From Candidatus Bathyarchaeota archaeon (lineage in GTDB: Archaea; Thermoproteota; Bathyarchaeia; TCS64): DNA of 64,000 bases. Within the stretch, counting starts at the first letter, position 1; each line of letters opens with the position of its first letter. Position numbers: made by a program. The DNA is taken from positions 32,001 to 96,000 of the forward strand of contig JBDRQD010000046.1 in NCBI GenBank assembly GCA_043826455.1, in the 5' to 3' direction. This document shows positions 36,001 to 39,000 of this stretch, piece by piece.

Positions 36001-39000
36001 CAAATATCTCTTCTGGCGCATGTAGAGTACCCTCAAGCCCCTGTCCCTGAGCCGCCTCCTGAGCTCCGAGTCCGTCGTGGCGACCACGTAATTATACTCT
36101 GAGGCGAGCCGGATTAGGGAGTCGTCCACCGTCTCACCCTCCCGGGGCTCGTCCTCGACGACTATGCACCGGGAGGCCAGGGTCAATGCAAAGTCTAGCT
36201 CCCTCTGGAACTTAGGCCCAGCTTCCTCCTTCAGGGACTCCATCTCTCTCAGCACGCCGGAAGTGACTGTTGGCTCCACAAGCTGGTTGAGGGCCCTCTC
36301 CGCCTCTGCGAATATGTCCACGCCGAAACGGATGGGTACCAGTAAAAAGTTGGTGTCGACTAGAACCTTGGCCGGCAACTCAGCCACTTACGGTCCCTAC
36401 TCCGATGAGCCTCCACCTGCTCCCTATGCGCCTGCTGATGGCGACCCTGTCGCCCGTATCCGCGCATACGGGGATGCTGAGGCTGGCCTCCATGGTGGAC
36501 TTCCTGATGTCTGTGACGTCCCCCATGGTCTTGGCGGTGCCCACGTTCAGTAGAAGCTTCTCACCCTTGGCCACCTTGGCCACCTTCTCCTTCTCCCGGC
36601 TGCCCACCACGTTCTCGAAGAGCTCATAGTCCAATACAAGCTTCTCCAGGACCTCTGGCAGTGTACCCGGTTTGCCCACCAGGCTGCCTACAAGCCCGTC
36701 GCTCTTGGTGATGGAGGGGTCCAGCATGGTACCCACACCCGCCAACCCGCCGGGTACAGCCTCGTCCACCCCCGTGCCGCCGACGTGGAGGCTGGTTATC
36801 TCTGTGAGAAGCTCCCGCATCTTGATCCTGTTCTTCTGCCGCGTAGGCAGGCCTGGCCTGATCTCCACTTCGTCCCCCATATTGAAGTTGCCCTGGGTTA
36901 TGCTCCCCCCCAGGACGCCTCCAACGATTTCCTCGACGGCTGTGCCCGGCTTGTTGACGTCGAAGCTTCTGATGATGTACATCCTGGGCGGCAGGTCTGG
37001 GTCCCTCTCAGGCGTGGGCAGGTACTGCTCCATAGCCTGGATGAGGAGGTCTATGTTGATCTCCTGCTGGGCCGAGACCGGGATGATGGGGGCGCCATCG
37101 GCGATGCTGCCCTTGACGAAGGCCTTGATCTGGTCATAGTTCTTCAGGGAGTCTTCCCTGGACACCAAGTCGATCTTGTTCTGGACTATGATGAGGTTCC
37201 GGAGGCCCACGGCCTCTATGGCGGCCAGGTGCTCCCGGGTCTGGGGCTGGGGGCACTGCTCGTTGGCCGCGATGACCAGTATGGCGCCGTCCATCACGGC
37301 GGCCCCGCTGAGCATTGTGGCCATGAGTATCTCGTGGCCGGGAGCGTCCACGAAGCTCACGGTCCGCTGAAGCTCGGCGTCCCCGCCGCAGGCGGGGCAC
37401 TTCTCGGACACGCAGTAGCACTGGGGCTCGTCGCAGTTGGGGCACTTGTAGATGGCCGCGTCGGCGTAGCCCAGCTTGATGGTGATGCCTCGCTTGAGCT
37501 CCTCGCTGTGACGGCTGGCCCACTGCCCCGTGAGGGCCTGGACTAGGGTGGTCTTGCCGTGGTCCACGTGGCCTATGGTGCCAATGTTGATCTCCGGTTG
37601 GCGCGGTAGTTTTGCGATGACGATTATCCCCCTGAACTAGTGGATTAGCTACTGCGCCTTATCTTAAATACATATCTCTGAAGGCTAGGAGGGTGGCTAC
37701 TCACCATGTTTTGGTAGTGTTTTGGTAACAGTTATATTAGGTTCTCGCGGACTTGAATCAGACAAGGTGCACCCATTGAGCGAGGACAAGGTACCTGTGA
37801 TGATCCCCCGCAGCCTCTACCAGAAGATCGAGGAGAAGATCGCGGGCACCAGCTTCACCACCGTTGAGGAGTACGTGGCGCTGCTTCTGGAGAACGAGTT
37901 CCCGGAGGAGACGGAGTACAGCGAGGAGGAGGAGGCCCTCATCCGTGAGCGCCTCAGGAAGCTCGGATACATAGAGTGATCAAGATGCCCAGACCCCACG
38001 GAGGACGCCTAGTGGACAGGCTCACCCCACCAGCCGCTGTTGAAAAGGTGCGCGGCGAAGCCACCGAACTAGTCAAGCTCGACGTGTCCGAGGAGCTGAG
38101 CCTGGACTTTGAGAACATAGCCTTTGGCCTCTACAGCCCCCTTGTGGGGCCCCTTAACCAGGACGAGTACATGACGGTTCTGGCCAAGGGGCGGCTAGCC
38201 AACGACCTGCCCTGGACGATACCCATACTCCTGGACGTGTCGGAGGAAGAGGCGGCAGGGTTCAGTGTAGGCGACAGGCTGTGCTTAGTCTGCGAGGGTG
38301 AGCCCTTCGCGGTCATGGACGTGGAGGAGAAGTACGGCTGGGACAGGAAGACCCACTGTGAGAGGATATACAAGACCACGGACCCGGCTCACCCAGGCGT
38401 AGCCAAGACCCATGAGATGAAGGAGACCCTCGTAGGGGGGTGCGTCGATGTCTACGAGCCCTCACCCGGGAAGTACCCAAAGTACCGCCTGAAGCCTCGG
38501 GAGACCCGGTTCCTGTTCAGGGAGAAGGGGTGGAGGACGGTGGCCGGGTTCCAGACCAGGAACGCGCCCCACATAGGCCACGAGTACGTGCAGAAGACGG
38601 CCCTGGCCTTCGTGGACGGTCTGTTCATCAACCCGCTGATCGGTAAGAAGAAGTCGGGGGATTTCACGGACGAGGTGATACTAGAGACCTACGAGGAGGT
38701 CATCAGGCACTACTTCCTCAGGAACAGCGCCACCATGGTGACCCTGGAGATGGAGATGAGGTACGCGGGCCCCAAGGAGGCCATACACCACGCCATCATC
38801 AGGAAGAACTACGGTTGCAGCCACTTCATAGTGGGCCGCGACCACGCCGGCGTCGGCAACTACTACGGACCCTTCGAGGCCCAGGAGATCTTCGAGGACT
38901 ACCCGGACCTGGGGATCATGCCCATCTTCTTCCGCAACTTCTTCCACTGCAGGAAGTGTGGGGGCCCCCAGAACGACAAGATATGCCCACACGGAGCGGA

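Follow-up and report, generated by a model that had tools for sequence, protein, structure and literature searches.

Where does translation of the initiation factor gene aIF2-gamma begin in archaea of the order TCS64, and what might the choice of its start codon do for the cell? The question is raised by one locus of a Candidatus Bathyarchaeota archaeon, lying in a 64,000-nucleotide stretch of contig JBDRQD010000046.1 that was analysed here as a whole (the window). The frame ending at position 36380 on the minus strand is open upstream as far as an in-frame TAG, and the first ATG, GTG or TTG in it is a GTG that encodes the Val of the GHVDHGK P-loop (Table 1). A first-pass annotation had remarked that no canonical start codon precedes the conserved N-terminus and had pointed to an ATC at the Met position, 8 nt behind a GGGGGA; the coordinates bear out both statements. 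Initiation at the GTG would yield a product of 395 aa instead of 412 aa, and the truncation by the gene caller, given in that annotation as 16 codons, actually amounts to 17.

The start site of aIF2-gamma in the window

Read from the ATC, the 412-aa product passes the cut-offs of the NCBIfam equivalog TIGR03680 (643.4 bits vs 514.5) and of PRK04000 (655.4 bits vs 315). The GTP_EFTU, D2 and eIF2_C domains are present, and the P-loop is whole only if reading begins upstream of the GTG. In its family, P-loop, single copy and adjacent PIN gene the locus resembles that of an ordinary archaeal aIF2-gamma (TIGR03680), but most outgroup genes start with AUG, GUG or UUG. The PIN_9 gene is probably on the same transcript as aIF2-gamma. 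An exact look-up of three proteins returned no match.

Table 1. Features of the aIF2-gamma locus, in window positions
Feature	Position	Strand	Remarks
aIF2-gamma CDS, read from ATC	36380..37618	-	412 codons plus stop; TIGR03680 and PRK04000 above cut-off
Near-cognate start ATC (AUC)	37616..37618	-	ATH at the same register in 61/67 order loci; ATG there in 2
Shine-Dalgarno-like (SD) GGGGGA	37627..37632	-	8-nt spacer to the ATC
In-frame TAG	37637..37639	-	7 codons upstream of the ATC; rules out an upstream start in the window genome
TATA-box-like TATTTAAG	37663..37670	-	Motif upstream of the start; spacing implies a leader of ~20-22 nt
First canonical in-frame codon, GTG	37565..37567	-	Within the P-loop; initiation at it would truncate the G1 motif; picked by common gene callers
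PIN_9 gene	35989..36387	-	Downstream; overlaps the aIF2-gamma stop by 8 nt; canonical start in 27/27 order copies

A standard initiator tRNA with CAT is found in the window genome, and its tRNA-Ile(GAT) is elongator-like. In a public run containing every word sampled from the window we saw no alternative letter over 37388-38500 and no credible joint, a result that argues only against a copying slip, since the run may itself be the source of the window DNA. Neither an Rfam match nor an unusual fold was found in the leader (fold z +0.89), and a riboswitch or hairpin mechanism, lacking both an RNA family and a stable leader fold, is unsupported. Three RNA contigs of relatives, from two studies, end at 37619-37624 and hint, weakly at best, at a 5' end close by.

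Near-cognate starts in the order and beyond

aIF2-gamma gave one match per genome in 73 of the 79 genomes of the order, and the 67 loci with an intact 5' end are the denominator for the start-codon counts. Six codons before the conserved Gln-Pro-Glu stand ATC (33 loci), ATA (20), ATT (8) or ATG (2); the remaining four loci have a start-like codon one codon further downstream (ACG in two, ATG in one and TTG in one). A near-cognate start (ATH or ACG) is thus found in 63/67 loci and a canonical one (ATG or TTG) in four. Persistence of ATC, ATA or ATT across the order, first put at 23 of 28 genomes, extends to 61/67 in this larger sample. The interval from the upstream stop to the conserved Gln is free of canonical codons in 38/67 loci, and 45/67 have none within 25 codons, in agreement with the earlier claim that most loci of the order lack a nearby in-frame start. 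An in-frame stop two codons upstream, previously noted in two loci, is present in 4/67; in two of the four a canonical codon follows 3-4 codons downstream, well away from the SD, and the other two have no further canonical codon nearby. Canonical codons do occur within 25 codons in 18 of the 63 near-cognate loci, scattered and often two codons upstream beside the SD, where they could act as an alternative start. Order-like loci from metagenomes have ATC without a canonical codon in 8/8 cases (7 distinct). The order-wide comparison gives good support to the non-AUG start as first proposed.

G occupies positions -13 to -10 in 80-95% of 65 order loci. The 16S 3' end was not found in the window assembly, and duplex energies were calculated with what we take to be the anti-SD sequence; they fall below -4 kcal/mol in 63/63 near-cognate loci, vs 81-84% of control copies. 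We rejected the idea of an unusually strong SD, since the median for aIF2-gamma (-7.4 kcal/mol) is ordinary and lies within the control range (-7.0 to -8.5 kcal/mol); only the constant presence and spacing of the site count. A TATA-like motif is found in 65/67 loci at a median of 51 nt upstream of the start. The usual archaeal spacing between TATA box and transcript would leave a leader of ~20 nt. Placement of translation on AUH by an SD-led short mRNA is strongly supported by these alignments, which also support the view that no other start would fit all loci.

Is this a property of the gene or of the lineage? The first-pass annotation had allowed that the lineage may simply tolerate such starts. 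Within the order, a canonical start within 25 codons is missing from 5 of 816 copies of 42 control families (mostly ribosomal proteins, some under names that we presume to be right), the exceptions being three uS11 genes that encode long N-terminal extensions and two genes for RNase P subunits that have CTG. These counts rest on anchors set by hand, three families having no anchor and 12 weak or cut rows being excluded; an automatic alignment anchor had been misled by conserved overlapping upstream genes into false calls of a missing start. Partner genes of aIF2-gamma are likewise canonical: aIF1, present in 71/79 genomes, starts with ATG in 31/31, and canonical starts are found for aIF2-beta in 29/29 scorable copies (30 fetched), aIF2-alpha in 21/21 (29 fetched), aIF5B in 8/8 (10 fetched) and aIF1A in 8/8, a count that leaves out five further genomes with unreadable aIF1A starts. 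Among 345 reciprocal best pairs between the window genome and 800 kb of G071, only aIF2-gamma and transcription factor S (TFS) are clearly near-cognate in both. The window genome adds two more CTG genes and three doubtful cases, which gives at least four clear near-cognate starts among its 345 orthologues, and two ATA and two CTG cases occur in G071; numbers from this screen are minimum values. TFS is a partial exception to gene-specificity, being labile instead of fixed: its 27 scorable starts (of 30) are ATG in ten, GTG in six, TTG in four, ACG in four and CTG in three, that is, near-cognate in 7/27. With codon usage as a confounder, an enrichment of SD-anchored triplets in the window genome gave no ranking of the near-cognate codons. 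Tolerance is thus real to the extent of occasional, scattered cases in other genes, but only aIF2-gamma keeps a near-cognate start throughout the order, and for this reason a lineage-wide habit is largely rejected as the explanation.

The trait had been described as one of the order, where it is indeed general, but it also recurs in Asgard clades. Most other archaea that we sampled, and most other Bathyarchaeia orders, have a canonical aIF2-gamma start. In the latter, 45 of 50 loci were scorable, two being without a canonical codon and three doubtful; a CTG start in families f28 and f30 carries little weight, since ACG starts occur in other genes there. A scan of the genome collection beyond the order (55 of 58 loci scorable) returned only Atabeyarchaeum as lacking a canonical codon before the stop. 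In its phylum, the Asgard archaea, 54 of 60 fetched loci could be scored and 11 are near-cognate by inspection. Three of these genomes (G241, G257 and G268) lack a canonical codon and have ATT 6-7 nt behind a GAGGTGA, the last three bases of which form an in-frame TGA stop. Two relatives from metagenomes show ATC and ATT in this position, giving ATT or ATC in 5/5. A second clade of six genomes has CTG in 6/6, 8-9 nt behind AGGAGG- or AGGAGGT-like sites and in two of the six directly after a stop; an ATG also follows 7 or 11 codons downstream, and the nearer of the two is not conserved. One further Asgard genome has CTG without a canonical codon, and another has ACG where its sister has ATG.

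On a broad protein tree of 102 of 137 rows (the 35 that failed a motif filter were left out), the near-cognate Asgard groups form separate, well supported clades, and the near-cognate label requires eight changes, six of them forced by strong branches. Controls from the ribosomal cluster (52, 24, 19 and 29 orthologue pairs) show aIF2-gamma alone as clearly near-cognate in both members, and other genes only as single-genome CTG or ACG cases. The trait remains patchy, with ATG at the Thermoplasmatota loci and at most of the remaining Asgard loci. GTG in 11 of the 13 genomes of another Asgard group was discarded as a signal, since neighbouring genes there also use GTG or TTG. Among the 26 loci from Methanoperedens-type (16) and Methanomicrobiales (10) genomes, 25 start with TTG (one ambiguous) and one with GTG, while the rpoE-like neighbour, a thin control, has ATG in 25/25. 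As far as sequence comparison can tell, the near-cognate start of aIF2-gamma is real, gene-specific and recurrent.

A possible feedback loop and its alternatives

What might such a start be for? The best reading, to which we give about an even chance of being right, is negative feedback through start-codon stringency of the kind known for infC. On a short leadered mRNA, the SD would set the 30S subunit over AUC, AUA or AUU, which would be read with a third-position mismatch by what is presumably the ordinary Met-tRNAi. Because the SD is kept in 63/63 near-cognate loci, it would be the codon and not the ribosome site that has been weakened, and this state would be held by selection, a step with moderate support. 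The output of gamma would then follow the strictness of the aIF2/aIF1 checkpoint against mismatched codons: with aIF2 plentiful relative to ribosomes the check would be strict and little gamma made, and with aIF2 scarce more mismatched starts would pass and gamma would recover. aIF5B may offer a less guarded route of initiation when aIF2 is scarce, and the level of aIF1 could cross-control gamma through the same codon. The homeostatic loop would thus sit on the carrier of the tRNA and not on the counterpart of IF3 or eIF1.

The direction of the feedback cannot be read from sequence, and the scarce-aIF2 loop is favoured because of several published observations taken together. In archaea, aIF2 and aIF1 jointly control AUG selection, and in the initiation complexes, as described in the relevant sections of PMC6412873, aIF2-gamma is fixed on the 30S subunit, touches aIF1 via its switch regions and keeps the tRNA constrained until this is offset by pairing with the codon. 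Rejection of AUU by the initiation complex is ascribed to aIF1 (PMC4705826 section 8; PMC6237735, in excerpt), Met-tRNAi can be bound by aIF5B (PMC7531240, in excerpt), and knockdown of eIF2 in human cells mildly raises initiation at CUG (PMC10325891, in excerpt). The factor shown in vitro to reject AUU is aIF1 and not aIF2, which counts against a feedback on aIF2-gamma. So do the four order lineages with ATG or TTG, the 18 near-cognate loci with a canonical codon close by, the sporadic CTG, ATA and ACG starts of other genes, and the canonical starts of most other Bathyarchaeia orders and archaea sampled. A wider proposal, that an archaeal stringency loop on aIF2-gamma and not on aIF1 has arisen several times, is more tentative and in our judgement falls somewhat short of even odds; it would cover AUH in the Bathyarchaeia order, AUU/AUC in the Asgard clade that contains Atabeyarchaeum, CUG in the other Asgard clade and a milder UUG in the Methanoperedens-type and Methanomicrobiales loci.

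Known systems offer partial parallels. As in bacterial infC, the start of an initiation-factor gene is a near-cognate AUN that is conserved and follows an SD, and infC output is expected to follow the stringency of initiation (PMC4705826, in excerpt). IF3, however, itself discriminates between codons, whereas its functional archaeal counterpart, aIF1, is the factor that starts with ATG here; the present gene encodes the GTPase/tRNA-binding core of aIF2, its codon varies among AUC, AUA, AUU and ACG, and feedback is a proposal. It may work like infC, yet we do not class it with the infC type because it encodes aIF2-gamma and not a counterpart of IF3, aIF1 or eIF1. The auto- and cross-regulation of eIF1 and eIF5 likewise lets start-codon stringency feed back on the synthesis of initiation factors (PMC3326321, in excerpt). 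By one published account, eIF5 is absent from archaea. The eukaryotic loops depend on a poor-context AUG or on uORFs during scanning, in contrast to the SD-positioned non-AUG codon on an eIF2-gamma orthologue seen here. eIF4G2 (DAP5/NAT1) has a conserved GUG start. It is thus another translation factor with a conserved non-AUG start, and it also affects start-codon selectivity (PMC10325891, in excerpt), but it belongs to a different factor family, works in eukaryotic scanning and has a single fixed codon.

The main rival to feedback is a fixed dosage cap, in which the weak codon holds gamma at a low, constant level without any sensing. Gamma in free form binds mRNA ends that carry a 5'-triphosphate, and too much of it might disturb translation or the balance of the alpha/beta/gamma trimer. 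Such a cap would account for the range of weak codons (ATH, CTG, ACG and TTG) across lineages, and it agrees with the slowed growth of Haloferax on glucose upon induction of aIF2-gamma, from which the authors drew the conclusion that the amount must be "not too high" (PMC3828320 sections 9 and 13). A weaker SD or promoter would serve a cap equally well, yet both are kept while the codon changes repeatedly, and a later Haloferax study found that overproduction of aIF2-gamma raised growth yield (PMC8576121, in excerpt). We consider the cap rather unlikely on this evidence. The same gain in yield (PMC8576121, in excerpt) also counts against the feedback reading.

The loop could also run in the opposite sense. 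If near-cognate initiation needs more ternary complex than AUG does, gamma would fall first when charged initiator tRNA or GTP is short, so that slow-growing archaea of sediments would match their capacity for initiation to the supply of nutrients. The same anatomy, a kept SD and a weak codon, fits this positive sensor, and the gain in CUG use caused by loss of eIF3D was reduced by eIF2 knockdown (PMC10325891, in excerpt). Knockdown of eIF2 alone raised CUG use in that study, however, and the initiation-factor loops known from IF3, eIF1 and eIF5, as far as the published accounts at hand describe them, stabilise stringency; we regard a positive sensor as improbable.

Could the codon simply have drifted, after an ancestral change from ATG to ATH was tolerated in a gene whose product is needed only modestly? 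A tree built from 270 coding bases requires at least 14 changes of the start codon, mostly among near-cognate codons. Each of ATC, ATA and ATT has more than one origin, and canonical states occur only as four isolated tips, never as a clade. The third base of the start is G in 2 of 63 tips; on this tree, 18 fourfold-degenerate sites each have G in 6-29 tips. When neutral evolution was simulated at the synonymous rate, the probability of two or fewer G was 0.004-0.005, and with a rate fitted to the 11 third-base changes it was 0.13-0.15. With its 11 changes the site behaves like an invariant Ile codon (8-17 changes), even though any start codon gives Met as the initial residue. We take the case for selection against AUG at this start to be moderate and not decisive. 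AT is kept as the first two bases in 63/67 loci across 67-100% protein identity. The slow-rate null and the four canonical tips leave room for drift, as do the wandering of TFS among ATG, GTG, TTG, CTG and ACG and the four clear near-cognate starts among the 345 orthologues of the window genome. The retention of AT, the ease with which fourfold sites reach G, the lack of a canonical clade and the independent involvement of the same gene in Asgard clades make relaxed selection an unlikely explanation. The near-cognate trait is dispensable, because four lineages are back at ATG or TTG.

The weakest alternative, that ATH is an ordinary internal Ile codon with the real start elsewhere (at an upstream codon or through an intron, editing or a special tRNA) or an assembly error, could draw on the third position, which with its 11 changes varies like that of invariant Ile codons (8-17 changes), and on canonical codons 2-9 codons upstream in some loci, but it is very improbable given the four stops two codons upstream (two without another canonical codon nearby), the 38/67 loci with no canonical codon before the stop, replacements that are all start-like (ATG, TTG and ACG), a TATA position that leaves a ~20-nt leader, and the tRNA, leader and public-run results above. 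We know of no editing that converts ATC, ATA, ATT and ACG all to AUG.

Implications for annotation and for the control of initiation

A full-text literature search, which reached a minority of subscription papers, returned no report of a non-AUG start of aIF2-gamma, and the archaeal start codons named in a review, in the text at hand, are only AUG, GUG and UUG (PMC7531240). Automated annotation has sometimes used the near-cognate start, several 412-aa proteins in NCBI/nr beginning with Met at the ATC register. Among 120 close database homologues, 23 start at the near-cognate register, 46 are cut, 45 are extended and 6 are slightly short; the 46 have lost the N-terminus, with the cut inside or behind the start of the P-loop. 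Gene callers therefore cut or over-extend an essential gene.

Bacteria (through IF3) and eukaryotes (through eIF1 and eIF5) stabilise the accuracy with which start codons are chosen, by feedback on initiation factors. No loop of this kind in archaea is described in the portions of the reviews examined, and one review regards even a role of GUG or UUG starts in archaeal translational control as undetermined (PMC4705826 section 8, in excerpt). The conserved AUH on aIF2-gamma singles out a factor and a codon, and raises the question of whether the level of aIF2 controls fidelity. By analogy with bacterial IF3, a near-cognate start in a setting of normal partner genes suggests that archaea may tune aIF2 via the accuracy of start-codon choice. 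If this is true, aIF2 abundance would set the fidelity of archaeal initiation in vivo, and archaea would have solved the problem independently, in a third way next to those of IF3 in bacteria and eIF1/eIF5 in eukaryotes. The recurrence of the near-cognate start in Asgard archaea bears on the origin of stringency control in eukaryotes.

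Unusual starts at other genes and loci

Several other genes appear to lack a canonical start (ATG, GTG or TTG). In the gene at window ~20450-21850, which we take to be glmM-like, a TTA stands at ~window 20486, 8 nt behind AAGGAGG, and the orthologue in the comparison genome G071 has a GTG nearby. The absence of a canonical start before the conserved region of the small ORF at window 47073-47492, presumably cupin-like, is shared by G071; CTG and ATA are uncertain candidates. The orthologues in G071 of two CTG-start genes begin with ATG or TTG, and CTG starts are also seen in the rnp1-like genes of two further genomes (G056 and G032).

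In one genus of the Bathyarchaeia family f28 (G136, G169, G217), uS3 apparently starts at ACG (loci L478-L480), as probably does uL5, which suggests that near-cognate starts are commoner in that genus. At three aIF2-gamma loci on metagenome contigs of an unplaced archaeal group (L528, L570, L571), the upstream stop is reached without a canonical codon, with ATA the candidate start at L528. Among the control families, only uL18 is fixed on a canonical codon other than ATG, namely TTG in 20/20 order copies (L228-L247 and G000:C68).

Initiator tRNAs, aIF1A and the divergent neighbour

The second initiator-like tRNA(CAT) of this genome may be a degenerate copy or may have been left behind by an integration event, and no clear tRNA-Ile2(CAT) was found among the tRNAs called. 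Three aIF1A paralogues score above the family cut-off here, and two apiece are found in G056, G071, G047 and G015. The small gene divergent from aIF2-gamma occurs at 34 order loci, and searches of Pfam and NCBIfam gave no match for it.

Features discussed in this part (G000, this genome; C, its contigs)
Feature	Location	Strand	Remark
glmM-like gene	window ~20450-21850 = G000:C46:52450-53850	+	no canonical start ahead of conserved N-terminus
Small conserved gene	window 37722-37979	+	divergent from aIF2-gamma; immediately ahead of sulfate adenylyltransferase
Cupin-like ORF	window 47073-47492	-	no canonical start precedes conserved region
CTG-start gene	G000:C15:64243-65028	+
CTG-start gene	G000:C56:8617-9189	-
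Transcription factor S (TIGR01384)	G000:C31:6091-6417	+	locus L379
Normal initiator tRNA(CAT)	G000:C39:12842-12919
Second initiator-like tRNA(CAT)	G000:C48:11304-11379	-	anticodon-stem mismatch; broken acceptor stem
aIF1A paralogue	G000:C62:29031-29309
aIF1A paralogue	G000:C15:92597-92863
aIF1A paralogue	G000:C15:50848-51123

The start of transcription factor S

The start of transcription factor S, a transcription-fidelity factor, is unusually labile in the order: the 27 copies that could be scored among loci L367-L396 begin with ATG (10), GTG (6), TTG (4), ACG (4) or CTG (3). The copy in this genome starts at CTG with a stop 3 codons upstream. In G066 and G071 the start is an ACG that follows GGAGGAG, and a stop precedes it by 2 codons. 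Weak starts may be maintained in transcription factor S as well, which would make it the second such gene.
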